Assembly (NCBI GenBank): GCA_000092065.1
Contig: CP000593.1
DNA from: Ostreococcus lucimarinus
Lineage: Eukaryota
Direction: 5' to 3' (one strand)
DNA length: 64,000 bases
In this document: positions 2,047 to 61,200 of the stretch, piece after piece
Numbering within the stretch: the first letter of the stretch is position 1
How the letters are laid out: every line of letters starts with the position of its first letter
The notes under the pieces: model-generated
What the model saw: only the letters and a program-made list of their open reading frames with translations
Databases searched by the model: none
What the model was told of the DNA's origin: nothing
Translations under genes and position numbers: made by a program

Positions 2047-3727
2047 ATGGCGTTCGCGCTCGGCGCGAGCGCGGAGGAATGGGCGATCGACGCGTGGATG
2101 CGGTTACCGTTGATCGCCTGGGCGAGTTCGTTCGTCGGGACGGTGCGTCGGGCGGTCGCGCGCGGCGCGCGCGCGGCGCGAACGCGATGGATGGTCGAGC
2201 GGGCGCGCGCGCGCGCGTTGAGAGCGACGCGAGACGCGTTCGGGCGCGCGAGACGGCGACGCGCGAGGCGCGGCGCGGTGACTGACGGGAGTTTCGAACG
2301 CGCGGTGGACGCAGCTCATGAATAAGCACGCGAAGACGCCGAAGATCACGGGATACTTGCTCGCCGGCGTGGCGTTTGGGCGACACGGTTTAGGCGCGTT
2401 GTCGGCGGCGGGATCTCGACGGTTATGGCTCGTCGATAACGGATGCCTGGCGTGCATCGGCGTCGCGGCTGGATCTGAGGTGGTGCTGAGTGAGGTGCGG
2501 AAGACGCTGCGGGTGACGATGGTGACCATCGCGAGCGTGGCGTGCTGCTGCTGGTGCGCGACGTTTGGCGCGTTCGACGCGATTTTCGCGCAGAGGGTGG
2601 AGTTTTTGCAAGGGCTGACGGAGCGACACGTCGCGGCGGTGGGATCTTTATTGGGGACGCTTTCGTTGGCGCGCTCGCCCGCGAGTGCGATGGCGGTGAT
2701 CAACGAGTGCGAGGCGAGCGGGCCGTATTGCGCGCACATTTTGAGCACGACGGTTTTGAAAGACGTTCTCGTCGTCGCGTTGTTCGCTATAAACGTCGAG
2801 CTCGTGGCGCTTTCGGGATTAGACTTCCACAATATCATATCAGATGCGGCGACGATGGCCTTGGGAGGTGAGATCGCGAGCAACACGACGCGCGATGTCG
2901 GCGCGAGCGCGGCGGCGAGAAGACTCTTGGTGAATTTGAAGCCCGCGACGCAATGGGAAACTTCGCATCCCATCACCAAGCTTTTGCAACCTATAGTGCG
3001 GGTGATCGGGGCCGCCATTGCGGGTATCATCGCAGGCGTCCTACTTGGACGCTTGCTCAAACCCACGTCCTTGGCGGCGCGTTGGAAAAACATTCGTGTC
3101 GGCTGCATCGTGTGCGGCGCCGCCGCCATCTTTGTGTCTAGCGAACATCTCGGATTGGAGCCTTTATTGGTGTGCGTCGCCGCCGGTCTCACCGCGGCAA
3201 ATCGCAAGCATACGAACGGCGCGCACGAGCGCGAGGAGTTACACGCCGCGATCGCGATCGTGACGCCAGCGGTAAATTTGCTCTTCTTCACCCTCGCCGG
3301 CGCGAGCCTGCGCCTGGAAAACGTGTACAACTCCATCGTCATCGCGGTCGGTCTCGTCATCGTTCGTCTTTTGGGGCTGTATTGTGCCACGGCAATATCT
3401 GCGCGCATACTCAAAGCACCGGCGGTGAGCGACATCACGGGCGAACGGCGCAAAAACATTGAATGGATGGGGCACGTCACCCAAGCCGGCGTCGCGCTCG
3501 GTTTGTCGCGCACCGTCGCCGCGAGATTTCCATACTGGGGCCCCGCGTTTTCGACGCTGGCCGTGTCCGTGATCGTCATCAACTTATTCATCGGTCCCGT
3601 GTTATTTCGCGCATCCATAGAACTCATGAACGAGTCGCACTCGACGCTCAACGCGGCGTTGGAGCGCATCGTCGCGACGCCCAAGCGCGCGGTCGAGGCG
3701 CCCGCGACCGGCTCTCCTTCCCTTTAG
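2047..3727 (+). CDS. Cation/H+ antiporter, CPA2 (Kef/KEA-like Na_H exchanger family), 2 exons: 2047..2142 and 2315..3727
   Basis: Polytopic membrane protein with the CPA signature KITGYLLAGVAFGRHGLG near the N-terminus. The ORF beginning at ATG 2318 lacks the first TM helix. Exon 1 (MAFALGASAEEWAIDAWMRLPLIAWASSFVGT) supplies it and joins in phase 0 through a GTGCGT...ACTGAC...CAG intron. Confidence 0.7.
2143..2314 (+). other. Predicted intron (172 nt) of the CPA2 antiporter
   Basis: Donor ACG|GTGCGT at 2143, ACTGAC at 2281-2286, acceptor CAG ending at 2314. Phase 0 on both sides. There is an in-frame stop if it is not spliced. Confidence 0.55.
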
Positions 3728-3838
3728 CACAGCGCGCCGCGCGCCTAGTCCATTTGTATCGAAAGTCTCCTTTCTTAGTGTATTACATTCGCATGATTCA
3801 TTCGCCGCTAAACTAAAATTAAACAGGCTCTCGCGACC

Positions 3839-4351: not shown

Positions 4352-4592
4352 CCGTCCGTCGATCGCGTCGCGATCTGCGCGCGCGCGCGTCGTCGCCGCC
4401 GATCGCTCGAACCTCGAGCCATCGATCGTTCGCGCAGATTTAACCGCATCGCGAGGTTCGATCGACGACGCCGTCCGTCGATCGCGCGTCGCGATCCGCG
4501 CGCGCGCGCGATCGTCGCCGCCGATCGCTCGAACCTCGAGCCATCGATCGACTCCACCGATTTCACCGCATCGCGAGGTTCGATCGACGACG
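4352..4592. repeat. Tandem duplication, 2 x ~120 bp, CGATCG-rich, in the QCR9/ANTH divergent promoter
   Basis: Copy A is 4352-4470 and copy B is 4471-4592. They share long identical blocks (ccgccgatcgctcgaacctcgagccatcgatcg, caccgcatcgcgaggttcgatcgacgacg) with a few indels. Confidence 0.85.
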
Positions 4593-4662
4593 CGCGCGCG
4601 GGTTCGCCGGCGCGCGGGCGCGCCCGCGCCGGCACAGACGCGCGCGGTCGCGTCGGCGCGCG

Positions 4663-6813
4663 ATGCCGCTCCGGTTGCAGAAAAAGGCGTCGCGCGTCGT
4701 GCGCGCGGTGGCGGAGGAGGTCCAGGTCGCGCGCGGCGTCGGCACGCGCACCGATAAGCGCGGGAACGCGAAGACGGCGCTGTGGGAGCGCGGCAAGGTG
4801 CGATCGAGCGGCGGATTGGCGCGTGTCTCGATCGGCGCGACGAGGATCGCGCGCGAACGCGCGACGCGAGGCGACGCGCGACGCGCGCGCGCGGAGACGC
4901 GAAGGGAAACCCGCGCGGGAGATTCGGGGAGACGCGCGAGAGACTGACGGGACGCGGACGCGACGCAGGCGAAACTCGCGGCGACGGCGGTGGAGAAGGA
5001 GTTCGCCGAGACGCAGTTGGCGTTTAGCAAGGCGACGAATTTCGATGACGTGCCGCCGAAGGAGAAGCACGTGCTGGCGCTGGTGCGCACGTGCGGAGGC
5101 GCGGGCGGAGGGAGCTCGAGGGATCGGGCGTTCGTGTTGGAGACGTTGGCGAGACAGGTGCGGAAGTGCGCGCCGTGGAGGACGATGCTGAAGACGCACG
5201 TGTTGCTGCACAGGTTGATGCGGGAGTGCGAGGGAGGGGGGTTTAAGGATGACTTCTTCAGGTTTTTGGAATTTTTATCTCGGAAAACGTACGGGCCGAA
5301 AGAACAGACGCTGTTTAACATTCGCTACTGGAAGGACGAGACCAACAAGGACGCGTACGAGTTGTCGGGGTGGACGCGCGCGTACGCGGCGTACCTCGAA
5401 GAGCTGTGCGCTTTGAATGAGTTCATCCCGAGCCTCGTAGGAAACGTGAGTGGCGCGGTGACGACGACGACAAACGGCGAGGCGCGAGCGGTGGTGGCGA
5501 ATCCGTTGAAAGATTGTGATTTCGCGACGTTGATCAAGGTTTTGCCCTTGGTGCAGACGCTCGTGCGACGCATCACGGATTGCGCGCCAACATCTACGAC
5601 GCTGCAGAAAAATGCCGTCTCGCGATACGCCGTCGGACTCGTCGCAAAGGATAGTTTCTTGGTGTATCGCGTCATGAACGAGGGCATCATAAACCTGGTG
5701 GACAAGTACTTTGAAACGAGCAAAGTCGAGGCGGAGAAAGGGTTGGTGATTTTCAAAAAGTACTTGACGCAAATCGAAGACTTGCAACGATTTTACGACA
5801 CGTGCGAAGCGTGCGCGGCGGTGGAAAACGCAGTCGTCAAGCTTGAAGCACCCCCTGCGACGTTTTTGAAGAGCATGGAAGAGTACTTCGAATCGGCGCC
5901 TCGCGAAGGCTTGCCTCTTCGCGAGCGGCGGTTGGGCGCGACATCTTCGACGACGGCGAACAATGCACGAGCGAATGCGGTGGGGTCGACAATGTTGGCG
6001 ATCGACGTCCCCGCCAACAACGCGGACTTTATCAGTACCACTGCTGCGCTACCGCCGGTGGAGCCGTTGAATGCGCTCGATGCGCTCAGTCAGCTTGATT
6101 TAGGTACGCCGAGCCCAACGAGCAAAGACGATGTTTTTAGCTCAAACGCGCTGCCCGCGCCGACGCAACCGCCGGCGTTAGCGCCGGTCGCGCCCGCAGC
6201 TTCGAGCAGTACAAGCGCACTTGATTCTTTCTCCGAGTCAATCGCTCCGGCGGTGCCGACGGAACCCTCTGCGGTGGCGTACAACCCATTCGGAGCGAAC
6301 CCATACGGCGGCGCCCCGCAAATGGTGCCGGCGGCTCCGCAAACGGCGCCGGCGCCCCAAGCAAAATCGCCGAGAAGCACGAACCCATTCGGAAATAACC
6401 CGTTCGGTACACCACAGCCTCAAAGTTTGGACAAGAGCGCACTCAATGACTTATACGCGCAAGCTCCAGCGTCACCCAGGAGTGGCCATGGCATGAGTTC
6501 CATGGCACCGCCGCAACACATCAATCCGAGCTTTATGCAAGCGCCGCCCAACAGCGCCTTGCAGCGGCAGCAAGTTGGCGCACCTCAGCTAGCGCTACCG
6601 ATGGCTGGTGTGCAGTATCCACAACAATATCCGCAGATGGCGTTCCCCCAGCACCATCAGCAGATGGGATACCCGCAGCAGCATCCGCAGATGGGATATC
6701 CCCAGCGCCCGGCGGCTGAACCACCGTTGCACCCGGCGTTCGCCAACCCTCACCAAGGCGGCAGTCCAAGTTCTAGCGCTCCATCACCGCAGAACTCCGG
6801 CAGTTTGATTTGA
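4663..6813 (+). CDS. ANTH-domain clathrin assembly protein (AP180/PICALM-like); likely 2 exons: 4663..4797 and 4969..6813
   Basis: ANTH core is present: SKATNFDDVPPKEKHVLALV...WRTMLKTHVLLHRLMREC...LSGWTRAYAAYLEE. The C-terminal half is P/Q/A-rich with NPF motifs (NPFGANPYG, NPFGNNPFG). The ORF-track start at 4990 is GTG, and the first in-frame ATG would delete part of the ANTH domain. An upstream exon starting at ATG 4663 joins in phase 0. Confidence 0.75.
4798..4968 (+). other. Predicted intron (171 nt) of the ANTH gene
   Basis: Donor AAG|GTGCGA at 4798, ACTGAC at 4943-4948, acceptor CAG ending at 4968. There is an in-frame TGA inside. An alternative earlier donor (GAG|GTCCAG) cannot be excluded. 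Confidence 0.45.
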
Positions 6814-8370: not shown

Positions 8371-8801
8371 AATAAGATGTAAATATAAAAAATGAATCCG
8401 TCACTCTTAGACTGCGATCGCGTTCCGATGCGTGTCGGAAATGGTAGACTGCCAGCGGAGCCATCAAAGGCTTCCTAATCGTCAACCGCACGATCCGCCC
8501 CAAAGTAAACTTTAATAAGATGTAAATATGAAAAATGAATCCGTCACTCTTAGACTGCGATCGCGTTCCGATGCGTGTCGGAAATGGTAGACTGCCAGCG
8601 GAGCCATCAAAGGCTTCCTAATCGTCAACCGCACGATCCGCCCCAAAGTAAACTTTAATAAGATGTAAATATGAAAAATGAATCCGTCACTCTTAGACTG
8701 CGATCGCGTTCCGATGCGTGTCGGAAATGGTAGACTGCCAGCGGAGCCATCAAAGGCTTCCTAATCGTCAACCGCACGATCCGCCCCAAAGTAAACTTTG
8801 A
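8371..8801. repeat. Near-perfect tandem repeat, 3 x 143 bp
   Basis: Unit starts (taagatgtaaatat...) are at 8373, 8516 and 8659. I see 1 mismatch between copies 1 and 2 and 1 at the end of copy 3. The repeat fills the gap between two convergent genes, from 3 bp after the MFS stop codon to about 40 bp before the 3' end of the next gene. Confidence 0.95.
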
Positions 8802-12049: not shown

Positions 12050-12436
12050 CTCTCGCGTTTTAATCAGGATTTAAAGCGAACGATCAGTTTTGTGGAATTC
12101 GTCGCTTTGAACGCGTCTGACGTCGTCGCCGCGCGTCTTCGAGGCGTGCGGCGCGCGCGAAACTTTGATCGCGCGTGTTTGTTTCGCGGTGCGCGCGGTC
12201 ACGGACGCCGCCGCGCGCGCGCGACGACGCGATGTGACGATAAAGCGAGCCGCCAGTGTCATCATCTTGTGCTCCCTGCGTCGCGCGCGAGCGCCGAGCG
12301 CGCGCGTTTTAATGTCGCCTCGCGCGACCGCGCGCGCGGTCGACGCGGTGGTCGTCGCGATCGAATCATCGTCTCTCGCGTTATTCGCACATGCTAATTC
12401 GTTTCAATTCGCTACGTTGAACGTCGCCGCGCGGCG

Positions 12437-14035
12437 TCACTGGAAGTACGCGGTGAGGGAGCGGCGCGCGCGCGTCGGCGGCGCCGGGGAATCGATCGAT
12501 GTCATCGGTTTCGCTTTTGCTCGCGGGATCGGCTCGTTCTCGGTATTTTCTGCGTCGGGGCGCTCTTCGTCGATGTCTTCGACGTCGGGGTCGGCGTCGG
12601 CGTCGGCGTCGAGGACGACCGGGGACGGCGGAAGACCCGCGGCGAGGGCGAGGGCGTTCCCGGGGGTGTTGGGACGTCTCGCCGTTTGAGGCGCGAATGC
12701 GCTGAGAGGGGTGAGCACGGCGGATGATGTCGCCGCGATGGCCTCGTAACGCTCTCGCCAGTACCGAGCGTCGCTCTGGAAGAGCGCGCGCGCGCGGCGT
12801 TCGTGCTCGAGCGCCTCGATGACGTCGATGGAGGCGGCGGGTTTCGAGGGCGACGCCGAGACGGCGGCGCTGGGTGAGGACGCCACTACCGGCGATATCG
12901 GTCGCAGCTGATGCTGTTGCTGCTTTTGGGCGTCCAGTTCGCGCTGGAGCTCGTCGCGTTCGGCGGCGATGGCGTCCAAGTTTTCCTCGAGCGTCTTCAC
13001 TCGTTCCTCCGCCACGTTGACCTCTAACTCCGCCGTCGCCGCGCGTGCATCCGCCAAACGGAGCGCGGCGGCGTTTTCCGTGAAAATTTGACTCGCCTTG
13101 TCCGCGCGAGCAACGATGAGGTCGACGTTCTTTCGAGATTCCACGAGCTGGGCCTCGGCGTCGCTCAGCGCGACGCTCAGCGCGTTTTCTTTCTCGCGGC
13201 TTCGTCGCAGCTCATCCGCGCGCTCTTCGAGCGCGGCTTCGGACTCCCGCAACGTCGACGCCGTCGCCCGAATTTCTTCGTCTCGTTCGGAAAGTAAACT
13301 TCGTAACTCCTCAATCTCTCGCGCGAGCTCCGGCGACGCCCTCTCGCCTTCCTCCGCGGCTCTAAGCCGCGATTTCAAAACGTCTCGCTCCGCCGCCGCC
13401 GTCTCCGCCTTTTCGTTCGCCTCGTCCGCTTCCGCGCGCGACCTCTCGCGCGCATCCTCCAGCTCGCGCTTCGCCGCGTCAAACGTCTCTCTCGTCGCCT
13501 TCGTCTTCGCCTCCGTCTCGACCGCGTTCGCCTTCGTCTCCGCCTCGCGCGCCGCCCTCTCCCTCTCGAGCGCGTCCTCTAATTCCTTCGCCCTCTCGTT
13601 CGCCCTCTCCAGCGCCTCCGCGTCCGTCGTCGACGTCGTCGTCCTCTTCGACGCCTCCGCCCGCGCCAGCGTCCTTCGCAGCGTCGCCCGCAGTTCGTCC
13701 CGCAGCGCGTCCCTTTCCGCCCTCGTCTTCGCCTCTCCCGCCGCCGCTCGATCCCTCGCTTCCTCCATCTCCCTCGCCGTCGCTCGCGCCTCCTCCAGCG
13801 CGCGCTCGCGCGCCTCCAGCGCGCTCGTCAGTCGCCGCACGTCCTCGTCCACGCTCGCGTACGCCTTGCTCAGCCGTCCCGCCTGCGCCGCCGCCGCGCG
13901 CGCGCGCTCCAGCCTCGCCTCGCTCGTCTCCAGCGCCGCGCGCATCCCCTCCAGCTCCCCGCGCAGGCCGTCCACCGTGTCGTCGAACGCGCGCGCGTCG
14001 CCGGGCGACGACGCGCCGCTCGCCGGCGCATCCAT
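12437..14035 (-). CDS. Long coiled-coil protein, function unknown
   Basis: First ATG at 14035 (MDAPASG...); the ORF-track start is GTG. About 330 aa are E/A/R/L-rich heptad-like sequence (ALEERADELRRSREKENALSVALSDAEAQL...), followed by an acidic, proline-containing tail. Confidence 0.65.
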   Translation of the reverse strand: MDAPASGASSPGDARAFDDTVDGLRGELEGMRAALETSEARLERARAAAAQAGRLSKAYASVDEDVRRLTSALEARERALEEARATAREMEEARDRAAAGEAKTRAERDALRDELRATLRRTLARAEASKRTTTSTTDAEALERANERAKELEDALERERAAREAETKANAVETEAKTKATRETFDAAKRELEDARERSRAEADEANEKAETAAAERDVLKSRLRAAEEGERASPELAREIEELRSLLSERDEEIRATASTLRESEAALEERADELRRSREKENALSVALSDAEAQLVESRKNVDLIVARADKASQIFTENAAALRLADARAATAELEVNVAEERVKTLEENLDAIAAERDELQRELDAQKQQQHQLRPISPVVASSPSAAVSASPSKPAASIDVIEALEHERRARALFQSDARYWRERYEAIAATSSAVLTPLSAFAPQTARRPNTPGNALALAAGLPPSPVVLDADADADPDVEDIDEERPDAENTENEPIPRAKAKPMTSIDSPAPPTRARRSLTAYFQ

Positions 14036-14281
14036 CGCGCCGCGGTGTGCCGTCGATCGATCGCTCGGCGCGCGCGCGCGTCGACCGCGCGAGGTTCGCG
14101 GCGCGCGCGCGATCGACGACGCGAGGGTCGCGCGATCGCGCGTCGATCGATCGCGCGCGCGGCCGCGCGACCGCGTCGATCGATCGCGCGCGCGCCGCGT
14201 CGATCGATGCGTCGTCGATCGACGCGCGCGCGCGATCGACGACGCGGCGGTCGCGCGATGGCGCGCGCGATCGATCGCGCG

Positions 14282-14301
14282 CGGTGGTGACGTCACCACC
14301 G
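14282..14301. promoter_or_regulatory. 20-bp perfect palindrome cggtggtgacgtcaccaccg with a TGACGTCA (CRE/bZIP-type, ACGT) core
   Basis: Exact reverse-complement symmetry, checked base by base. It lies 73 bp upstream of the HCF136 ATG, in a 338-bp divergent intergenic region. Confidence 0.5.
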
Positions 14302-14373
14302 GGCGCGGCGGCGACGCGCCGGCGCGCGGCGCGGCGCGGCGCACACCGACGCGCGCGCGCACGACCGCGCGCG

Positions 14374-15657
14374 ATGACGACGAGCGCGACGGCGACGACG
14401 GCGACGACGGCGACGGCGCGACGCGCGACGGCGCGCGCGCGCGACGCGGGGTCGAGACGGGCGCGAGGGGGGGCGCGATCGCGCGCGCGAGCGACGACGC
14501 GGACGACGACGGCGACGCGGGCGACGACGGAGGGCGCGGGGGAGGACGCGAGCGCGGAGGGGAAGATGCCGCGACGCGCGCTGGCGGTGAAGACGGCGAC
14601 GCTCGTCGCGGCGCTGAGCGCGCTGCCGATGGATAAGCGCGCGCTCGCCGAGGGTTCGATCGAGAGCTCGTACTGGGAGCAAGTGGAGCTGCCGCTGGAG
14701 CCGGGAGTGATTCTGCTGGACATCGCGTTCAGTTCGAACGATCCCAAGCACGGGTTCTTGCTCGGGACGAGGCAGACGGTGCTCGAGACGAAGGACGGAG
14801 GGAAGACGTGGGACGTGCGCGACTTGAGCGGATTGTTGGACGACGACGTGAATTATCGCTTTAATAGCGTGTCGTTTTGCGGCGACGAGGGATGGATCAT
14901 CGGTAAGCCGGCGGTGTTGTTGCACACGACCGATGGTGGCGCGAACTGGGAGCGCGTCGGGTTGAGCCCGCGACTTCCGGGGGCGCCGGTGTTGATCACG
15001 GCGGTGCAAGATAACGGCACGGCTGAGATGGTGACGGACGAGGGGGCGATTTACTTCACCAAGGACGCGGCGCGCAACTGGAAGGCTGCGGTCGAGGAGA
15101 CCGTCTCCGCGACGTTGAACCGCACGGTGAGCTCTGGTATCACCGGCGCTTCGTATTACACGGGCACGTTCTCCACGATCTCGCGCAACGACAACGGCGA
15201 GTACCTCGGTTTAAGCTCTCGCGGGAACTTTTACATGTCTTGGGCGCCGGGTCAGGCGTACTGGCAACCGCACAACAGAACGTCCGCGCGTCGGGTGCAA
15301 AGCATGGGCTGGCGCCCGGATGGCGGGATTTGGGAGCTTACCCGCGGCGGTGGCATCTTCTTCTCCGCCGAAACCGGCCTCCCGGAGGAGGATTCTGAAT
15401 TCAACGAAGGTAGAATCGGCTCTCGCGGCTTTGGTCTGCTCGACTTGGGTTACACCCCGAGCGGCAAGACGTTCTGGACCGTGGGTGGCTCTGGAAGCGT
15501 GTTTTACTCTACCGACGCCGGTAAGTCATGGAAGCGCGACCGCGGCACGGACAACGTCGCGGCGAACCTCTACAACGTCAAGTTCCAAAGCGAAGATCAA
15601 GGATTTATTCTCGGCAACGACGGTATTCTCTTGCGTTTCACCGGCGCCAAGTTGTAA
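14374..15657 (+). CDS. HCF136: Photosystem II stability/assembly factor HCF136 (Ycf48 homologue), plastid/lumen-targeted
   Basis: Near-continuous identity blocks with plant HCF136: HGFLLGTRQT.LETKDGG.TW, NYRFNS.SF.G.EGWIIGKPA.LL.T.DGG, AEMVTDEGAIY, ETVSATLNRTVSSGI.GASYYTGTFS, SSRGNF...W.PGQ.YWQPHNR...RR.Q.MGWR.DGG, AANLY.VKF. First ATG at 14374. The leader has an RR-containing hydrophobic segment (MPRRALAVKTATLVAALSALP), consistent with a bipartite signal. Confidence 0.92.
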   Translation: MTTSATATTATTATARRATARARDAGSRRARGGARSRARATTRTTTATRATTEGAGEDASAEGKMPRRALAVKTATLVAALSALPMDKRALAEGSIESSYWEQVELPLEPGVILLDIAFSSNDPKHGFLLGTRQTVLETKDGGKTWDVRDLSGLLDDDVNYRFNSVSFCGDEGWIIGKPAVLLHTTDGGANWERVGLSPRLPGAPVLITAVQDNGTAEMVTDEGAIYFTKDAARNWKAAVEETVSATLNRTVSSGITGASYYTGTFSTISRNDNGEYLGLSSRGNFYMSWAPGQAYWQPHNRTSARRVQSMGWRPDGGIWELTRGGGIFFSAETGLPEEDSEFNEGRIGSRGFGLLDLGYTPSGKTFWTVGGSGSVFYSTDAGKSWKRDRGTDNVAANLYNVKFQSEDQGFILGNDGILLRFTGAKL

Positions 15658-20768: not shown

Positions 20769-21056
20769 ACGATCGATCGATCGATCGAGGTTTAAAACGG
20801 CGCGCGGTCGAAACGCGCGCGAGGGTCGACGCGCGCGAGAACGATCGATCGATCGCGCGGTCGATCGGTCGATCGATCGAGGTTTAAAACGGCGCGCGGT
20901 CGACGCGCGCGCGAGGGTCGACGCGCGCGAGAACGATCGATCGATCGCGCGGTCGATCGGTCGATCGATCGAGGTTTAAAACGGCGCGCGGTCGAACCGC
21001 GCGCGAGGGTCGACGCGCGCGAGAACGATCGATCGCGCGGTCGATCGGTCGCGCGG
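20766..21056. repeat. Tandem repeat, ~3 x 92 bp, CGATCG-rich with one TTTAAA island per unit, in the TLK/FKBP divergent promoter
   Basis: The ggtttaaaacggcgcgcggtcga anchors are at 20789, 20881 and 20973, giving an exact 92-bp period. Units are nearly identical and the third is partly degenerate. A (GCC)8 run follows at 21062-21086. Confidence 0.9.
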
Positions 21057-27891: not shown

Positions 27892-29913
27892 CTAATTCTC
27901 CCACGCCACGTGACGCGACGAATTTACCCTCGATGACGGATCGGCTTCGGACGAGAGTATGCTCCCGTCGTCGACCGCCGAAGATGACGCCCACGTGTCG
28001 TACTGCAATCCTGGGATGTTTTGCGTGTGATCGCTCGAGCGATGCGCGTCCAAGACGAAGGGCTCGTCCAAGAGCGCCACAGCCTCGGGGCGCATCTCCG
28101 CGTCTCTTTGTAAACATAGTCGCAAGAAATCTTGTCCTTCGGGGGACAAATCCTCGGGGATGTCTGGGATCTCGTTCGAGGATGCGATTTTGAATATTAT
28201 TTGCACCTGCGTGCTGCACTCGCTCCACGGCGGCGAGCCCGTAGACATCTCATACACCGTGCACCCAACGCTCCAGATATCGGCTTCAAAACCGATATTT
28301 TGTTGGCGTATTACCTCGGGTGCCATCCAACACGCGCTTCCTTTGAACGATTTCCCGATCGACACGCGCTCGAGCACCTTGGCCATACCAAAATCGGCGA
28401 GCTTGATGCGCCCGCTCTTTTCTACTAAAATGTTCGCCCCCTTGATGTCTCGATGTACCACGCGCTGCGAGTGCAAATACGCCAAACCGATTAAAATTTG
28501 ACGCGTATACACGCGAATTACGTTTTCTTCAAACTTACCGAATCTCTGCACGAGAGACGCGATGGATCCTCCCGGGACGTATTCTAAAAAGATGTACAGC
28601 GCCGTCTCTTGACGCGTGATCCCAATGTAACGTACGATATTGGGATGCACTAAGCGCGAAAGCACGTCCACTTCTTGCTCGAGTTGCTCAATGGACTCGT
28701 CGCGGTGCTTATCCGAACTCCCCACGCGAACTTCCTTGAGCGCGAAAAGCTCACCCGTGTCGCCATTGAGCGCTAGCCAGACGCTGCCGTACGAACCTTC
28801 CCCTAAATTATCCCCTTTTGTCCATCGACGAGGTTTCGTCGGTGCGAGCGACGTGTGACACATTCGTAACATACCATCATCCGAGGTGGTGTAACTCACC
28901 TCGCTCCAAGCGCCGCCGCTCGTCGATCGACGATGACCCAAACGCGGCGAAGGAATGCCGTTGTCTGAGTAGTCGTGATCCGTCGACGCCCTCACGGACG
29001 GCGCGCCGTCATCCATGAACGGGTTCGATCGATCGCGCTTGTGCATCGTCTCGCGATGACTATCGTCCATCGCGTCTCTCGCGCTCAAGTCGCTTGCCGT
29101 CGTGCTAACCTCGGACAACCTCGAATCTCTATGCGCTCGGCGCTCGGGGCCCGAGCTCGGCGGCGACTCGGACAATTCCACCGCCGTCATGGACGCCGCA
29201 CCTTTCGCGTGCCGAGGGATCGTCACTTTTGTTGACGCCACTTTCGCCACCTTCCCAGCCGCCGCCATCGCGCCCTTCGCCGCCCCAGCCGTGGTGGACA
29301 CGAAGGAATTCGTCCGCCGAGTCACTCTATCTCGCGATTGAATCAATCGCGTCTTCTCCCCCGAGTCCACCGCCATGTCCAGCGTCACCTCATCCAAACT
29401 CACGTATCCATCGTGCGATCCGGGCAAGAGCACTTTCAGCTTCTCCGCGACGCGCGTCGACCCACGCCCGTGCGCTGACGCCAAATTCCCCAACGGAGGC
29501 GGCAACGGCAACGGCGTCGCCTCGCTCGTCGTCGCCGCCTCGCGTCGCTCCGCCGCCGCCAACACCTCCGCCGCGGGCGTCATCCGGAGCGATCTCGTGG
29601 ACTTCGTCATCGCACGGCTACCCATCACCGCTCCATCGCTCGCGCTCTCGCGCGCCACCGCGTCCGCTCGCCGATCGTCTTCGTTCGCGTTCGCGTTCGC
29701 GTTCGCGTTCGCGTTCGCGTTCGCGTTCGCGTTCGCGTTCGCCCCGTCTCGCCGCATCCTCTCCTTCGCCTTCACCGCCGCCCCCTTCATCGCGATCGCG
29801 ATCGCCCGCGCGCGCGCCTTGAAAGATCCAGACCCCGTCGACGTCCGCGCGTCGCCGACGCCGTCGTCGTCGACGTACGGCGTCGTCGACGCGCTCGAAA
29901 AGCAAATTCCCAT
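27892..29913 (-). CDS. MAP kinase kinase kinase (MEKK/STE11-type) with N-terminal acylation motif
   Basis: ATG at 29913. The C-terminal kinase domain reads W.KG..LG.GSYGSVWLA....GELFALKEV, VHRDIKGANILV, IKLADFGMAK, GSACWMAPEV. The N-terminus MGICFS has a myristoylation/palmitoylation-type motif (glycine at position 2, cysteine at position 4). Confidence 0.85.
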   Translation of the reverse strand: MGICFSSASTTPYVDDDGVGDARTSTGSGSFKARARAIAIAMKGAAVKAKERMRRDGANANANANANANANANANANEDDRRADAVARESASDGAVMGSRAMTKSTRSLRMTPAAEVLAAAERREAATTSEATPLPLPPPLGNLASAHGRGSTRVAEKLKVLLPGSHDGYVSLDEVTLDMAVDSGEKTRLIQSRDRVTRRTNSFVSTTAGAAKGAMAAAGKVAKVASTKVTIPRHAKGAASMTAVELSESPPSSGPERRAHRDSRLSEVSTTASDLSARDAMDDSHRETMHKRDRSNPFMDDGAPSVRASTDHDYSDNGIPSPRLGHRRSTSGGAWSEVSYTTSDDGMLRMCHTSLAPTKPRRWTKGDNLGEGSYGSVWLALNGDTGELFALKEVRVGSSDKHRDESIEQLEQEVDVLSRLVHPNIVRYIGITRQETALYIFLEYVPGGSIASLVQRFGKFEENVIRVYTRQILIGLAYLHSQRVVHRDIKGANILVEKSGRIKLADFGMAKVLERVSIGKSFKGSACWMAPEVIRQQNIGFEADIWSVGCTVYEMSTGSPPWSECSTQVQIIFKIASSNEIPDIPEDLSPEGQDFLRLCLQRDAEMRPEAVALLDEPFVLDAHRSSDHTQNIPGLQYDTWASSSAVDDGSILSSEADPSSRVNSSRHVAWEN
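29683..29742. repeat. Hexanucleotide microsatellite (gttcgc)x10, encoding (Ala-Asn)n in the MAPKKK
   Basis: Ten perfect units on the plus strand. In frame on the minus strand they give ANANAN... Confidence 0.9.
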
Positions 29914-35403: not shown

Positions 35404-36150
35404 TCACAGCGCGCTCTTTATGACGGCCGCCTCCCCGTCGCGACATCGCGCGTCCCACACCGCGACGCCATCGTCCGCGGCCACCGCGAACTCGGGCTCT
35501 CGACCGTACACTCGTCGCGCGACCTCGATCAAAATCATCGCCGTGAGCCCCCATATCGTGCGCCCCTCGTACTCAAAGTAATGGACGCGCACGGCTGGGC
35601 GCGCCCCGTTCGGCCGCGCCCAGTCGTCGTACCGGTGACGATCCGCGCTCAGAAACATCTCCAGCGGCGCCGTGAACACCTCCGCCACCTCCTCGCGCGA
35701 GATCTCCTCCTCGCGCACGCGAAATCCCTCCCGAACCACCCCCACCACCGGTCGCACGCTCACGCGATGCCTCGACATCACCACCGGCAACCGTCCCACC
35801 ACCTCCACGTCCCTCGGCGTCCGCATCCCGATCTCCTCCCGCGCCTCCCGCGCCGCCGTGCCCGCGTCGCACGCGTCCCGCGCGTCTCGCTTCCCTCCCG
35901 GCAGCGCGATCTCTCCCGCGTGCGATCGCATCGACGTCGCGCGCGTCGTCAGCGTCACGTCCCAACCGTCGTCCCCGCGCGCCGCGAGCGGGACGAGCAC
36001 CGCCGCGCGATCGCTCCCGCGCATTCGCGCGTGCGCCGCCGCGTCGCCGTCGCCGTCGCCGTCGTCGAACAGTCCGCGCAGCGCGTCCGCGCGGCGCGTC
36101 GGCATCGTCGACGCGCCGACGCGTCGCGACGTCGCGACGCATCGTTCCAT
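35404..36150 (-). CDS. Nudix hydrolase, CoA pyrophosphatase subfamily (NUDT7/8, plant NUDX11/15-like)
   Basis: Nudix box GEIALPGGKRDARDACDAGTAAREAREEIG. The upstream SHAGE.ALPGG context is typical of CoA-diphosphatases. ATGs lie at 36150 and 36105; the ORF-track start is GTG. Confidence 0.75.
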   Translation of the reverse strand: MERCVATSRRVGASTMPTRRADALRGLFDDGDGDGDAAAHARMRGSDRAAVLVPLAARGDDGWDVTLTTRATSMRSHAGEIALPGGKRDARDACDAGTAAREAREEIGMRTPRDVEVVGRLPVVMSRHRVSVRPVVGVVREGFRVREEEISREEVAEVFTAPLEMFLSADRHRYDDWARPNGARPAVRVHYFEYEGRTIWGLTAMILIEVARRVYGREPEFAVAADDGVAVWDARCRDGEAAVIKSAL

Positions 36151-39390: not shown

Positions 39391-39583
39391 ATAGTCGCGC
39401 GTCCGAGGGATTGCGCGAGTGCGCGAAAACTTCATCACACACAACCGCTAGCAACGCAAGATTAATTCAAATTCAATCACTGTACGCTATCGACCGATCC
39501 TTCAAGTCGCGCGTTTCGCCTTTCCGTCCCGAGGCGCTATCCTTGGGACAAGATGATGCGTTGACGTCAGACACCCGCCCGCG

Positions 39584-48922: not shown

Positions 48923-49390
48923 ATGTCGCCGCGCTCGAGCGCGATGACGCCGACGCCCGGTAAGCACCGACGGTCGCTGAGCACGCCCGTGGACGTGCTG
49001 GCGTCGAGCGCGCTGCAACGGGCGCTCGATCGCGCGCGGGACCGACACGGCGGCGACGACGCGCCGAGCCGAAGCGATTCGCTGTTCGGGGACGAGGACG
49101 CGATGGCGCACGCGATGGCGATCGATTTGGACGACGCGCCGCTGGACGTGCGAGAGCTGGCGATGCAGGATCCGAAGCGAGCGAAGAGGATTTTGGCCAA
49201 CCGCCTGAGCGCGGCGCGGAGCAAGGAGCGAAAGACGCGATACGTCAAGGGGTTGGAAAAGAAACTGAACGAGCTGGAGGAGTGCGAGAGGACGTTGATT
49301 TTGGAGAGAGAAAGAATGGCGACGGCGGTGGCGACGCTGGCGGCGGAGAATAGCGCGTTGCAGATGATGATGGGGACGCCGGCGCGGTGA
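48923..49390 (+). CDS. bZIP transcription factor
   Basis: ATG at 48923. The basic region [32 protein letters not shown] is followed by a leucine-heptad zipper ([33 protein letters not shown]). Confidence 0.85.
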
Positions 49391-51522: not shown

Positions 51523-51816
51523 CGCCGACGCGCGCGGCGTCGCGCTCTGCCGCGCGCGTCCGCGTCGCCGCGAAACCGAAAGGTCGAGGCGAAGGGTCGT
51601 TGGCGTCGACCGCGCGCTTCGGCGCGTCGCGCGCGCGCGCGAGCGGCGCCGACCGCCGCGACGCGCGATCGATCGTCGGTTCGCGCGCGCGGGCGCGCGG
51701 CGGCGCGCGGCGCGCGGGCGCGGCGTCGACGATCGATCGCGACGGCTCGGGACACGGCGACGCGACGACGCGCGAGGACGACCGCGCGAGCGACGGCGCG
51801 CGCGAGGACGACGGCG

Positions 51817-55203: not shown

Positions 55204-58200
55204 TCACGACGTTGCACAGAACGCGGCGTCTTCGGTGAAGATGTTAGCGATGGTGACGTTCTGCTCAGGGAGCTGTAACGCCAAACCGTCGATGTGACGA
55301 ACGGTGAAGAGGGCGCTCGATGGACCGCCGACAATCCAGCACTCGGCACAGAGAGAGATATCGCGGAACGTGAGCTCGACGCCGGCCTCGACAACTTTAG
55401 CTTCGACGTAGACGCCACAGCCATTGTCATCGCTTGATGGTGGTCCATCGCGAGATCGCACGCCGACGAAGATGCAATCGACGATGAAGTCTTCTGGAGG
55501 CGCGACAATCGGAGCTTCGTTCGCAGCAACGACGATTCTCTCAAATGGAAGCATCACGGCGACACCATTCAGGCAGATTTGATCGCTCACGCGTCCAAAA
55601 TTGATCGCTGTTCCTGTAACGACAGCTTGAGAACCACCTTCGCCGCGTAAGAGCTGGAGACTCAAGCGTGCGTCCGTCTCGCGTAAACGCTCTGGCGCGG
55701 ACTCCGTCGGACAAATCGTTGCGTCGTCGGGTGAGCACGTTCTCGAAAGTCCATCGACCGGAATCGGCGCCGGAGTCGGTGTGGATGGCGGTGCACCAGG
55801 AGGCAACTGTGCGCCCGGTATTACCGTAATCGTCGACGCTGGGATCTGCACAGGGACACCAGGCTGAAGAGTGAAGTAAGTCGCGGAATCCGGAGCTGGA
55901 GGCGTGGGCGATGATTCTGTCGGAGGCGTAGGCGTAGGCGTTGGCGTAGGCGTTGGCGAAGGCGTTGGCGTAGGCGTTGGCGAAGGCGTTGGCGAAGGCG
56001 TTGGTGAAGGCGTTGGCGAAGGCGTTGGTGAAGGCGTTGGTGAAGGCGTTGGTGGTGGTGATGGCGATGGTGGAGACCTTTGCGTAGGAAACCATCCGCT
56101 CGTCCAAGGAACGTCCGGACCTCGATCCCATGCGGCAATTTCCGTAGGTCCACGCTCCGCGGTGTATCCACCGCCAATCGCCCGTTTCAACCAACACGAG
56201 TGATATGCAAAGTCTTTGCAATCGCCGGTACAGTAAACCCACGTATCACAGTCGCGCGTTCGAAAGCATGCTTGGCAACACGCCTCTTCGGTATCGACGA
56301 TGAATTTTGAGCCATCGCGAAGAAGTATGCCTTTGAGGTTCAATCCTTTTTCGCCGTTGCACACGAGACCGTTTACCGGTGTTGGCGTCATCGGAGGTGA
56401 AGTCGGAAGCATCGCAATTGGCTCAACGAGTTGTCCTTGTATGTCTCTTCGACAAGTGGGGTTTCCAACCGATGGCCCAACGTAATCAAAACGCGCGCCC
56501 GAAAGCGATACAACGCGAAACAAGGTCTCATTGTCGCCCTGGAGTTTGCATCCAGCACACAGCGTGACGTTCGACAGGGAGACTTCGAGCAAAGTAACTT
56601 TCGGCAGTGGTCGTCCACTCGCCTCGTTGAAGACGCCGTCGGGTGCGTACGATGCCATGCGGAATTGAAGCCCTGCACAAGGTTCGAGGCTCGGAGTGCG
56701 AGATTCGCCGTTCACGACGGTTATCATCAAACACTCAATGGCGTACTCGTCGAAAGGATTTTGAACTTCTCTCCACGTACCGTTGATGTCATTTACCCAC
56801 GAACTCAGCACGATTGGGATGTTGACATCAATCAACCGAATCGCACCACCGTCGTTGTTTACTCCAATCGAGCCGCGGAAATCATAGCGGTTGAATGGCG
56901 CGACTCGGAAGTCGCCACCGACGTCGACGCGTTCACCAAACCACGACAGCGAGGCTTGAACGCGTGGAAGGACATCGAGACAATCCACGGGGCGTCCTCC
57001 ATCTGAGGTTTCGCCGTCGAAACCGTCGCGAAAAGATGGACGTGCGTATTGCGTCAAATTGAAGCCAGCGAGCGGTCGTAACGGCGCGATCGATGGTGTG
57101 ATGTCTGTGCGATTTGCGTCGCCAAACTGGTCTTGATCTGGAAAGAAGGGAATGCCACCAAAGAACTGTAGCAATTTGCGTCGTGAATCGTTAGGAGGAC
57201 TCTCGAATACGTCTGTCCAACTACCTCCGACATCGCATTGAAGCGCTCGAATCGTTGGCGCGAGTGCGTCGAGTGTCGCCTCTGATTCATGCTTTGCGGT
57301 GAACAGTTTACCATCTTGAACACGTCCCGTGATGGCGGCATCCGGAGGAATCGTCAAGTTTGCAAGTGTTATTTTGATACCGGCGATACTTTCTTCAATC
57401 GTCGCGCGATCGCACAGCGTATCATCTAGGACTTCTCCGCGAGCGGATATGAGCGAGAGTCCAGCGCATTCCACAGATGGAACGCTCAAAGCATCAACGA
57501 ATTCATTCATGTTACCTTCCCGACGTCGATAGCCAATCACGACCGTGACTTCAGGAACACGAATTGTGCTATTCGCGCAACAACCGATTGCGCCGAGAAC
57601 GTCGTAATCGGTCGAGTTTGGCCGCGAGGCGACGACGAGAAAGTTCTTCAGTTCTCGGACCGGATCGCACTCGCTGCGTCCAGGCGTGTCGCTTGGAATC
57701 ACTTGACCGTTTTCAACGACAACACCGTATCCTTCAAGCGGGCGTGTAATGGGTGGAGTGTCCGTTCCGATCGGAATCGTCGGATCGGTGTCATTTCCGG
57801 GCCGTTCAACGACGATGGTTTGAACCCCTAATTCCTCGGAGAGCGCCGGGCAGGCTTCCGTCAAATTGAACCCGCATCCTAGCGGCGTGAACCCAACAAT
57901 CTCTCGCAAGAACATGACGTTATCGTCGGTGATGAGTGTGAAATCATCGCACAGACAGCTTTCGTTGTGCAATCGAGCTGCAGCGCCGCAGCACGGTGCA
58001 AAATCAGAGATGCGTGGTATCACTCCGACATCGTTTTGCTGAATCGCGCTGCAGTATTTCCGCGTCACGTCAATCGTATCGGCGCAGGAGATGTCATCTC
58101 GCAACGCGCCACCATCGTCAACAATGCGCTCCCACTTTTCGTCGGGGATGACGAACTCGGGTACCGCAGTCGGAGTGCTCAAGAATTGCGTCAAAAGCTG

Positions 58201-61200
58201 CTGATCCTCGCACACGTCACCGACTTTGATTCTAAAACCGCACGCAAGAGGCGTAAATGCTGAAAGTTCACCTACGGACGGGCGGATGCCTTCGAAACTT
58301 TGAATGAACTCTGGAACGCAGAAACATCCAGCTTCATCCAAGTCGCTCAGCGCAACGCAACAACTCGGGAACGAAGCAGGGTTCGGACCACTGATGGTCG
58401 CAGTTTCAAATCCCACGCACAGTTCTTCGACACGTGGGATATTCGACACGCACAACGATGTGAGCTGCGAGTATTCCGAAGTCGGTACGAGAGCTATGAC
58501 ACGAACAAGGCGTTCTGCGGAGACATCGCATCCACCTGAGTCACGCACTCGGTAATACACGCGATAAGTGCCGACACGACTGGTGTCCACTTCGCTTGTG
58601 TCTGCCTCGATTGCGTCTGAAATGTCACCGTCGAGTTCATCCGTCGCAACAGCCCCGGGGTCAACGTACAGCGAGTTGAGCAAGACTTCATTTTGCACTG
58701 CATTTGGTCCGCCGACGAGACGTAGCGTTGGGCATTCATCGACTGGAGGTGGTGGACTCGGCGGTGGCGGTGGAGGCGGCAACGGTGGCGGCGATGGTGG
58801 AGGGGGGCTTGGTGGCGGGGGGCTCGGCACTGGAGGCGGCGGTGGTGGACTCGGCGGCGACGGCGATGGGGGCGATGGGGGTGGTGGTGATGGGCTCGGT
58901 GGTAGAGGACTCGGCGGCGGCGGCGATGGAGAAGGCGGGCTCGGCGGCGGCGGCGATGGAAGCGGACTCGGCGGCGGTGGCGATGGCGGAGGTGGACTTG
59001 GAGGCGGACTCGGAAAGCAAGACAGGCCGGAAACGAGCTCAAGTCCAGAGTCACAGAGAGTCGGTGCAGTGATTTGAACGGTGCGAATCGCATCACCGAG
59101 TTCGTCGATGATGGCTGTATCGCAAAAGCAACGCTCGACGTTCATTCCCCTAACAATGTCGCAGCATGACGGATCGAAAGCTTCGTCATTTTCGATGCCA
59201 AAAATTGATCCACATCGACCTTGTAAATCCTGAAGAAGTCGGAGACAAGTAGGAAGAATCGGAGGGGATGGAGATGGCACCGCCACCGGCGGTGGAGGTG
59301 GCGGCGATGGAACTTCCACCGGCGGTTGCGGCGGAGGTGATGGCGATGGAACTTCCACCGGCGGTTGCGGCGGAGGTGATGGCGATGGAACTTCCACCGG
59401 CGGTTGCGGCGGAGGTGATGGCGATGGAACTTCCACCGGCGGTTGCGGCGGAGGTGATGGCGATGGAACTTCCACCGGCGGTTGCGGCGGAGGTGATGGC
59501 GATGGAACTTCCACCGGCGGTGACGGCGAGGGAGGTGATGGTGATGGAACTTCCACCGGTGGAGGAGGAGACGGTGAAGGTTGCACGATCGGAGGCGATG
59601 GTGGTGGTGATGGCATCATGACTTCAGCGCCGACTACGCCGCTTGTCCATGTCACGTTTTCCCCGCGTTCCCAAGCCGGCACCGGAATCGTTTCCACATC
59701 TTCTTTCGAAAGCTTCTTCAGCCAGCATTCGCCGAACTTGTAGTCGTAGTACTCGTTGCCACAGCCATCGATAGACGCGCAGAATACCCAAGCATTGCAC
59801 TTTTTCATTTTTTTGCACTCGGCGCAGCATTCGGTTTCGCTATCGACAACCAAGTCCGAGCCGCTATTCAACGGATGTCCCTTGTAATTGGCGTTTTCTT
59901 CTACTCGACACCCCTCAATCGACGGGACGGGTTCAGGAATTCGATCGACGAGCGAGCCACTGACCCAAGGAACGCCGTCGCCTCGCGCGATGGCTGGTGG
60001 TTTTTGAGGGTCGCCGCCGACGAGAAAAAGTTTCAACACACACGTCTGGTAAGCGAATTCGCCATCGCATCCGCTGACGTCATCGCAAAAGTTCCACACA
60101 GCACACGCTGGATCAGCGAGGCAAGCGTCGCAGCACGCGCTCCAAGAGACTGCGTTAACAATTGAAATCTGGATTCCGTCGTAGTTTGCGTTTGTCTCTG
60201 CTCGACATTCTTTGCGCTCGTTTGATGTATCAAACGGCACTGGCTCCACTTCTTTATCACGCAGCGCACCGGAGATATAAGTCGCGTTTGGTCCACGTTT
60301 GCCAGGAATGGTGTCTTGAGAAATGATTTCCGGTGCGGCGTACTTGAGTTCGCAGGATGAGTACGAATAAGCGAACTCCGATCGCCCGCATCCGTCGTTG
60401 GCGGTACAGAACGTCCACACGTTGCAGTTTGGATTTTCTCTACAGGCTAAGCAGCAAGCTTCGGGAGATGGAACCAAGAACAAACCAGTAGTGAGTGTAG
60501 ATCCTTCGTACTCTGCGTTTGCCTCCTCGTCGCACGGGCGGACGAGCTCCGCGTCAGTCGGCCCGTCGCCCCGCGGAAATCCAGCGCAAATCGGTTCGCG
60601 TAAACCATTCGGCGAAATTTCTGTGCTCGAGAAACCACGACCATCCGCGTACGAGAGATCGAGAACGACGTTGTTTGGACCACCGACGATGAAGCAGCCC
60701 GGGCACAGCACTAAATCATCACCAAAACTGAGTTCTACGCCTCGTTCGGTAACGACGGCTTTGCATGTTGCCGCGGCGTCGCTCATGGGTACCGATGAGA
60801 TCGGATAGACGATTTGCAACCCCTCGCACGCGGCTTGCAACTGAGACTGCTCGTAGTCTCCGCCGAGATCGATCGCGAACGTCACCTTTGACGCGTCAAG
60901 AGTGCTGCACGAGCGATGTCCGACGATGCCGCGAATTCGAGCGACGCCGTCTTCAATCTGAGACTCGAGAGTGCTGAAGACGACGTCGAGAAGACTCGGA
61001 CACGCACTCAGCATGATTTGAGCGTTTGGATTCCAGCCAAACGTTGACGTTGGTGCGACACTTACGATTGAGGATGCGGTGGTAAACGCGCTGGGATCGC
61101 ACGTGGGATCGAGCGCGCGCACCGATTCGGCGTCAAGCACGCGCGATTCGCGATCTCGAAAAGAAAACAAAAAGTTCGAGTATCCTCCGGCGAGGAACTC

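Follow-up and report, generated by a model that had tools for sequence, protein, structure and literature searches.

What, if anything, in the 338-bp spacer upstream of HCF136, the gene for a photosystem II assembly factor, is a regulatory signal in Ostreococcus lucimarinus? We analysed a 64,000-nucleotide stretch of contig CP000593.1 (the window) in which HCF136 lies head to head with a gene for a coiled-coil protein. An initial annotation had singled out the spacer for its many CGATCG hexamers, an internal duplication and a perfect 20-bp palindrome. Our answer is that the octamer TGACGTCA within this palindrome is probably a constrained site of the C-box or cAMP response element (CRE) type, bound by a basic leucine zipper (bZIP) protein that regulates HCF136, and that the CGATCG arrays and the outer arms of the palindrome are a lineage-specific overlay. 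The features needed first are these:

14288–14295, unstranded: TGACGTCA core, a C-box/CRE-type ACGT element starting 86 nucleotides (nt) upstream of the HCF136 ATG; the conserved part
14036–14373, unstranded: head-to-head spacer between the coiled-coil gene and HCF136, 338 bp, 81% G+C, 34 CpG per 100 bp
14374–15657, plus strand: HCF136/Ycf48, photosystem II assembly factor, 427 amino acids (PF14870, E 1.5e-125)
12437–14035, minus strand: coiled-coil gene divergent to HCF136, 532 amino acids, ATG at 14035, no Pfam domain

The spacer had been described as lying between divergent genes with start codons at 14035 (minus strand) and 14374 (plus strand), and its core as being of the bZIP/CRE type. 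Both descriptions hold: the genes are placed as claimed, the canonical site is exact at 14288–14295, and it is kept in 18 of 18 other lineages with flanks that have diverged beyond alignment. We presume the spacer to be a bidirectional promoter plus the 5′ untranslated regions (UTRs) of both genes. Orthologous loci came from two sources: look-ups by exact HCF136 protein sequence, and a single scan of metagenomes of the Joint Genome Institute (JGI), the latter giving 80 loci. The 18 representative lineages include O. tauri (L008), at least seven more Ostreococcus-like lineages, Bathycoccus prasinos (L085), a second Bathycoccus (L063) and a group characterised by the variant TGACGTGG (L011, L042–L045). 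In the window and in all 18 of these lineages, TGACGT[C/G][A/G] occurs within 220 nt upstream of the HCF136 ATG (64–203 nt), either as TGACGTCA or as one of the one-base variants TGACGTCG and TGACGTGG. The sites are listed below, with the start of the octamer relative to the ATG:

Window: GGTGGTGACGTCACCACC, -86
Sister lineage L019 (HCF136 98% identical): GCGGTGACGTCACGGG, -84
L022 (87% lineage): TGTGGTGACGTCATCGCG, -140
L026 and L029 (83–85% lineages): GGATGACGTCATCACG, -116 and -117
O. tauri, L008: CCGTGACGTCATCGCA, -68; in the coordinates of L008, CGTGACGTCATCG at 5931–5943
L009: CGATGACGTCATCGCG, -76
L028, L035 and L039: GATGACGTCGA, -93, -99 and -75
B. prasinos, L085 (99% to a protein named B. 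prasinos): GCTGACGTCG, -92
Related Bathycoccus L056, L072 and L093: GCTGACGTCG, -95, -95 and -92
Other Bathycoccus-like loci L063 (89% to B. prasinos) and L059: AGTGACGTCGG, -92 and -144
Further Mamiellales-like loci L011 and L042–L044: GATGACGTGG, -64 to -203

A MAFFT alignment of eight Ostreococcus upstream regions reached 46% column identity and did not even bring the motif into register, and whole-spacer alignment across species yielded no conserved block except by anchoring on the motif. When 23 loci were stacked on the motif, 70% conservation was reached only by G.TGACGTC. An alignment-free search returned CGATGACGTC and GACGTCATC(G) as the only complex 9–10-mers present in four or more of five species. 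In L045 and L055 the asymmetric TGACGTGG form runs the opposite way, and the occurrence of both orientations is what one would expect of a DNA site bound by protein. A change of upstream neighbour does not part the octamer from HCF136: it is also found where another gene, co-directional with HCF136, lies upstream (L043, L011). The core combines a canonical sequence and its conservation with a constrained distance to the ATG and independence of orientation, and the CGATCG part of the spacer is unconstrained.

A bZIP dimer would most likely bind TGACGTCA, one basic region contacting each TGAC half-site, and the bound protein would activate or time HCF136 transcription. The responsible factor would be one of roughly eight bZIPs, among which dawn-phased HY5 orthologues are the obvious candidates, and HCF136 may in this way come under light or diel control through TGACGTCA; relative to the transcription start, the octamer may occupy a promoter position. 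As a probe pair, and not as a result, we propose GGTGACGTCACC, which bears the core, and its mutant counterpart GGTGAATTCACC.

Plant ACGT elements such as the C-box (GACGTC) and the C/G hybrid box (GACGTG) are bound by HY5, GBF and TGA bZIPs, and are found in the promoters of light-regulated and photosynthesis genes. The window site is like the plant C-box in its identical core, TGACGTCA, with TGAC half-sites, in lying ahead of a nuclear gene whose product is an assembly factor for chloroplast photosystem II, and in being found in either orientation; the lineage variants keep one TGACGT half intact and are exactly the substitutions that interchange C-box and C/G-box. In the window's species it differs in lying inside a perfect 20-bp palindrome, which no plant element is known to require, and it is known here from sequence alone. 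The animal CRE, bound by CREB/ATF, is the identical 8-bp palindrome TGACGTCA, and several lineages carry the extended forms ATGACGTCAT or GATGACGTCATC; this likeness ends at the letters of the site, and no CREB-type pathway is implied. As in plants, bZIP genes including HY5 orthologues are present in Ostreococcus (PMC2492810, PMC5508029): O. tauri has eight bZIP genes, HY5 orthologues among them (PMC2492810), and OtHY5 transcripts peak at dawn (PMC5508029). The nearest algal precedent is the diatom CO2/cAMP-responsive elements (CCREs, TGACGT/C), which PMC11142338, citing Ohno et al. 2012, describes as targets of PtbZIP11 in the carbonic anhydrase and bestrophin promoters of Phaeodactylum. CCREs resemble the window site in that the hexamer is the same and lies no more than about 300 bp from the start codons of chloroplast-function genes in a marine alga, and in their inverted half-sites; they differ in belonging to a stramenopile rather than a green alga, and in acting as multiple spaced copies where the window has a single palindromic copy, for which no control by CO2 or cAMP is implied. 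The element adds a new, well-footprinted case to a class that is already well known; it is ordinary in kind and unusually clear in its conservation. No description of the site upstream of HCF136 was found in the literature library searched, and the Ostreococcus diel-transcription paper contains no motif analysis.

Several points weigh against a bZIP site that regulates HCF136, or limit how far it can be taken. Although TGACGT[C/G][A/G] has a density of 0.24 per kb elsewhere in the same loci, equivalent to a chance of about 4% per 180-bp interval, the lineage representatives were chosen by us and are phylogenetically related, and this per-lineage figure cannot be multiplied. Some start codons were estimated from protein alignment, leaving the distances approximate. 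In one Micromonas-like group (L047–L054, L012) no exact octamer is found in the expected interval, only loosely related ACGT sites that we left uncounted; conservation is therefore broad, not universal across the order. Six same-species sequences show no single-nucleotide polymorphism (SNP) in the 20 bp of the palindrome, an uninformative result because the stretch is too short, with less than one SNP expected even at the rate of the neighbouring repeat. The labels "promoter" and "bZIP" are themselves deduced by sequence logic. Finally, two observations leave room for a function of the CGATCG arrays. The spacer holds 13 CGATCG against 7.0 +/- 1.7 expected from local dinucleotide shuffles, an approximately two-fold excess that is inflated because a duplication roughly doubles the local count, and arrays in the window are restricted to four 5′ regions (4360–4581, 14054–14272, 20770–21042 and 51666–51734).

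The duplication in question is the following:

14051–14283, unstranded: 123-bp tandem duplication, 1.9 copies, 84% match and 6% indels by Tandem Repeats Finder, carrying all 13 CGATCG

About 14 CGATCG had been claimed for the spacer. The dense hexamers are real, and the exact count in 14036–14373 is 13 overlapping or 9 non-overlapping, four of them as CGATCGATCG. The duplication, originally given as 14101–14162 against 14224–14285, is equally real, with a 123-bp period and two copies that align at z 7.6 over shuffles; at the original coordinates the ungapped identity is only 40/62, because of an indel. The unit is composed of (CG)n, (CGAT)2-3 and GCGAGGKTCG blocks, and in the window's lineage such (CGAT)n/(CG)n simple sequence would have been duplicated once as a 123-bp unit. 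Metagenome contigs encode a protein identical to the window's HCF136, and in five independent JGI contigs (L014–L018) the 338-bp architecture is the same, with a handful of SNPs and an identical HCF136 protein. The architecture is therefore no assembly artefact, and is fixed in the sampled population; the 123-bp unit is present in two copies in 6/6 same-species sequences, with no variation seen.

Could the arrays themselves be functional, as sites for a factor or as GATC/CpG methylation targets that mark or open promoters, with the duplications tuning strength? Beyond the local excess and the restriction to 5′ spacers, this explanation can point to the sister lineage L019, which has 7 CGATCG in the 450 nt upstream of HCF136. 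These are arranged differently, without the 123-bp duplication, which is absent from all other species. In the same 450 nt, other Ostreococcus-like lineages have 0–1 CGATCG and Micromonas-like ones 1–3, and O. tauri and six further Ostreococcus-like lineages have no arrays in the orthologous spacer. Across the whole window the excess is mild: 147 CGATCG against 120 +/- 11.5 expected, barely an enrichment. It had been suggested that CGATCG be checked for enrichment in promoters. Within the window the outcome was the reverse, CGATCG being under-represented, with occurrences in 7/26 upstream regions against 11.4 expected from local dinucleotide shuffles (rank 1347/1361 among hexamers). The repeat segment also has the highest SNP density of the locus: among the six same-species sequences we counted 39 SNPs per kb in the CGATCG repeat segment, 9.5 in the coiled-coil coding sequence and 2.3 in the HCF136 coding sequence. 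CGATCG "saturation" as a promoter signal finds no support in these comparisons, being lineage-specific, under-represented in promoters and located in the most polymorphic segment.

Three of the four CGATCG arrays in the window were built by tandem duplication, their periods being 122, 123 and 92 bp. The first, at 4352–4593, has two copies with 91% match, is CGATCG-rich and lies upstream of an ANTH-domain gene. The 92-bp repeat at 20770–21051, also CGATCG-rich, has 3.1 copies with 95% match and lies between protein kinase and FKBP/nucleoplasmin genes arranged head to head. It is present in one copy in L001, L002 and L006, two in L003 and three in the window, with different (CGAT)n lengths, although short-read collapse could contribute to these differences; the O. 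tauri kinase/FKBP spacer lacks a CGATCG array. GCGAGGTTCG is common to the array at 4352–4593 and to those of HCF136 and FKBP. GCGAGGKTCG, shared by the three arrays, has 8 matches in the window against 1.3 expected, and two of the units are collinear at z 3.0, which would favour functional arrays, but only about five of the matches are independent and the rest come from the duplications. We did not adopt a dispersed repeat or mobile element as the explanation; the signal for one is marginal, the units at 4352, 14051 and 20770 aligning at z 1.3–3.0 over shuffles, and neither terminal repeats nor target-site duplications accompany these CGATCG-rich units. Our literature searches returned no paper linking CGATCG to Mamiellales promoters and none that brings it together with Micromonas, the combination of CGATCG, promoter and alga giving unrelated papers only. 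One further point in favour of the arrays is that CGATCGG stands 1–12 nt from the ACGT element in five loci of the TGACGTGG group (L011, L042–L045), within CACGCGCGATCGGAAAAA in 4/5 of them; these loci may thereby have a second block under conservation. Altogether we consider a function of the arrays themselves unlikely.

The arrays are micro-/minisatellite sequence under little constraint, because they are lineage-specific, have the highest SNP density and appear to vary in copy number at the 92-bp array. They resemble promoter minisatellites and other variable-number tandem repeats (VNTRs) in their head-to-tail 92–123-bp units seeded by (CGAT)n and (CG)n, in their high polymorphism, in the copy number at 20770–21051 that differs among samples, and in breaking short-read assemblies. 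Unlike a VNTR, the 123-bp duplication is fixed, with the same two copies in six same-species sequences. The short-read metagenome contigs L001–L006 end at or in the CGATCG array, 0–140 nt upstream of the HCF136 ATG: L001–L005 stop 0–65 nt upstream of it, whereas the first letters of L006 already lie within the repeat. Short-read assemblies evidently break at this array repeatedly. Upstream of HCF136 in O. tauri stands a different tandem repeat (L008 5745–5935), with four copies of an unrelated unit containing GGGGTTTCGTTTC. The same GGGGTTTCGTTTC occurs twice in L009 (2760–2925), just upstream of the TGACGTCA site, and L009 also contains a 23-nt perfect inverted repeat, GTCGACGAAACGCCCATCATCGC ... 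GCGATGATGGGCGTTTCGTCGAC, which we noticed by eye. A 143-bp near-perfect tandem repeat in three copies (99% match) occupies 8371–8799 of the window, in an AT-richer tail-to-tail spacer; it has one CGATCG per unit and is compositionally unrelated to the promoter arrays.

The palindrome that surrounds the octamer overlaps a second one:

14282–14301, unstranded: perfect 20-bp palindrome CGGTGGTGACGTCACCACCG, equal to its own reverse complement
14262–14283, unstranded: second perfect palindrome, 22 bp, CGCGCGCGATCGATCGCGCGCG, overlapping the 20-bp palindrome by 2 bp

Reverse complementation confirmed that CGGTGGTGACGTCACCACCG is a perfect palindrome, as the initial annotation had claimed, and it is invariant in the window, L006 and L014–L018. 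The accompanying claim, that a perfect 20-bp palindrome is very unlikely in 64 kb, overstates its rarity. The window has four perfect palindromes of at least 20 bp and 59 of at least 14 bp, and 32–37% of dinucleotide-preserving shuffles of the window contain one or more of at least 20 bp. Long palindromes are common in shuffles because the window abounds in CG, GC and AT steps, each of which is its own complement, and the 22-bp palindrome, built from self-complementary CG/GATC units, is expected in such a composition. Palindromes as poor in CG/GC/AT steps as that at 14282–14301 (0.16) arise in about 4% of shuffled windows, which makes it unusual, not extraordinary; extrapolated to a genome of roughly 13 Mb (our own size estimate), this rate predicts several chance occurrences. 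The remaining two perfect palindromes of 20 bp, GCGTCGCGACGTCGCGACGC at 36121–36140 and CGCCGATCGCGCGATCGGCG at 248–267, both lie in predicted coding sequence. As a caution, long perfect palindromes and restriction-site-like hexamer clusters in CpG-rich compact genomes are mostly compositional.

These numbers invite the explanation that nothing in the spacer is functional. A spacer that is rich in CpG, self-complementary and prone to slippage would then have produced the palindrome, the density of CGATCG and the duplication as side effects. In keeping with it, the 5′-5′ spacers of the window (codon-usage gene map) generally have 61–81% G+C and 15–34 CpG per 100 bp, in sharp dichotomy to the 3′-3′ spacers (33–61% G+C), and tandem duplications are common in spacers, as the 122-, 123- and 92-bp periods and the four-copy repeat at the same locus of O. 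tauri show. It is contradicted for the core: 18/18 other lineages keep TGACGT[C/G] with similar spacing to the HCF136 ATG, and among them are those of Bathycoccus, whose AT-rich spacers (37–45% G+C) seldom contain an octamer of this kind. The explanation does hold for the arrays and the palindrome's outer arms; as an account of the whole spacer we think it quite improbable.

If the bZIP site is the conserved part, how did the 20-bp palindrome arise around it? The length of 20 bp, to which significance had been attached, is supported neither as significant in itself nor as conserved, only the inner 8–10 bp being common even to the 98%-identical sister lineage. The full extension of the core is, in the lineages compared, confined to the window's species: the corresponding sequence is just GTGACGTCAC in L019 and GTGGTGACGTCATCGCG in the 87% lineage. 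The window and the 87% lineage have the left arm, GTGGTGAC, in common. In the right arm the relatives have GTCATCGCG(A/T), L019 has GTCACGGGGA and the window has GTCACCACCG. The window's right arm differs from the relatives' consensus at four positions, each difference creating complementarity to the left arm. One of the four is shared with L019, and the probability that the remaining three all fall on the complementary base by chance is about 0.04. The pattern is suggestive of quasi-palindrome conversion by template switching, or of selection for a symmetric site. Correction of quasi-palindromes by intramolecular template switching is known from Ripley-type mutations, and the likeness is that the relatives hold an imperfect palindrome at the same centre and that all four right-arm changes are toward complementarity. 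An ancestral quasi-palindrome (GTGGTGAC and GTCATCGCG) may thus have been converted to the perfect 20-bp palindrome in the window's lineage. Unlike in established cases, the ancestral state is reconstructed, from few lineages in a fast-evolving spacer, and the chance figure for three substitutions is the same 0.04 or so.

A more elaborate scenario would have an ancient bZIP site remodelled by a template switch and by (CGAT)n/(CG)n expansion, such that the palindromes and arrays form a cruciform- and Z-DNA-prone, GATC/CpG-modifiable module that gives a subset of promoters strain-variable output. If it were true, this subset would be HCF136, FKBP/kinase, homeobox/RING and ANTH. We regard the scenario as very doubtful.

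Still less probable is that the palindromes act as nucleic-acid structure, through a hairpin in the HCF136 5′ UTR that affects translation or stability, or through a cruciform of the abutting 22- and 20-bp palindromes. The 10-bp arms are perfect, the 22-bp palindrome is directly adjacent, and the predicted DNA hairpin for 14255–14310 has an energy of -22.9 kcal/mol. This is no better than shuffles (z -1.84; 10/200 fold at least as well), the outer arms lack both conservation and any compensatory pattern across lineages, the 8-bp core changes asymmetrically to TGACGTCG or TGACGTGG, and the orientation of the octamer flips between lineages. The best Rfam match, to GC-rich microRNA hairpin models, scored 36.9 bits against a gathering score of 124. 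With the Rfam match below threshold, this fold z score and unconserved arms, we also rejected the identity of the element as an Rfam family or regulatory hairpin RNA.

It is just as improbable that the element regulates the coiled-coil gene instead of HCF136, or both equally: it shares the 338-bp spacer with that gene, 253 nt from its ATG, and the Ostreococcus lineages examined keep the two genes head to head, but its distance from the HCF136 ATG is about 64–203 nt while the spacer ranges from 257 to 520 bp in Ostreococcus loci and is about 168 bp in L043, and it persists where the upstream neighbour is different or co-directional. The coiled-coil gene is syntenic next to HCF136 in these Ostreococcus lineages; L043, L011 and L012 have another upstream neighbour.

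Returning to the bZIP site favoured here, the factor that would bind it had been sought within the window itself:

48923–49390: bZIP open reading frame (ORF) (PF00170, 29.2 bits against a cut-off of 27.6)

The Pfam match confirms the claimed bZIP domain. Tying this gene, some 35 kb away, to the palindrome is unsupported: nothing connects gene and site, and proximity is uninformative because linkage means nothing for a eukaryotic transcription factor. The basic region is of the N-x7-K type, typical of plant group I bZIPs, which prefer non-ACGT sites; the protein may belong to this group.

Other ACGT sites in the window give hints of a link to photosynthesis-related genes. TGACGT/ACGTCA occurs in 7/26 upstream regions against 2.8 expected (z 2.2, rank 26/1361 hexamers). 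The only other intergenic TGACGTCA, at 39562 (39555–39583), is 22 nt upstream of the ATG of a gene of the DUF1997 family, which is found in cyanobacteria and plastid-bearing eukaryotes. The window and two other Ostreococcus-like lineages (L097–L101) have an ACGTCA(G)ACACC block upstream of this gene, about 20 nt from the ATG. An ACGT element also lies by the delta-6-type front-end desaturase gene, at 12112–12125 (TCTGACGTCGTC at -69), and the site upstream of the desaturase is common to O. tauri (L008 ~3720–3735) and L009 (~750–765), as GCGTCAACGTCACCG / GCGCGTCAACGTCACCG.

The window, with about 62% G+C, is judged to be nuclear DNA of an Ostreococcus species because of the gene order it shares with O. 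tauri and the identities of HCF136 to relatives. Its genes include a front-end desaturase with a cytochrome b5 domain, DGAT2, a tetraspanin-like protein and HCF136/Ycf48, and the order of these four is the same in the O. tauri assembly (L008, GCA_002158475.1). The HCF136 protein is 78% identical to that of O. tauri and 68–70% to proteins of B. prasinos. Elsewhere, 55204–61644 (minus strand) is a single ORF of 2146 codons with lower G+C and atypical codon usage, and was therefore overlooked by the codon model; it has long SPPPP/PSPTP proline-rich runs, repeated cysteine-rich modules and a 39-bp x 6.9 repeat at 59289–59559. A perfect (CGTTCG)10 hexanucleotide microsatellite is located at 29682–29742.

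Few cis-regulatory elements have been charted in the smallest free-living eukaryotes. An 8-bp site that has survived from Ostreococcus to Bathycoccus at a photosystem II assembly gene offers a clean and directly testable entry point, and TGACGTCA would link one of about eight bZIPs to chloroplast biogenesis in a transformable model alga.

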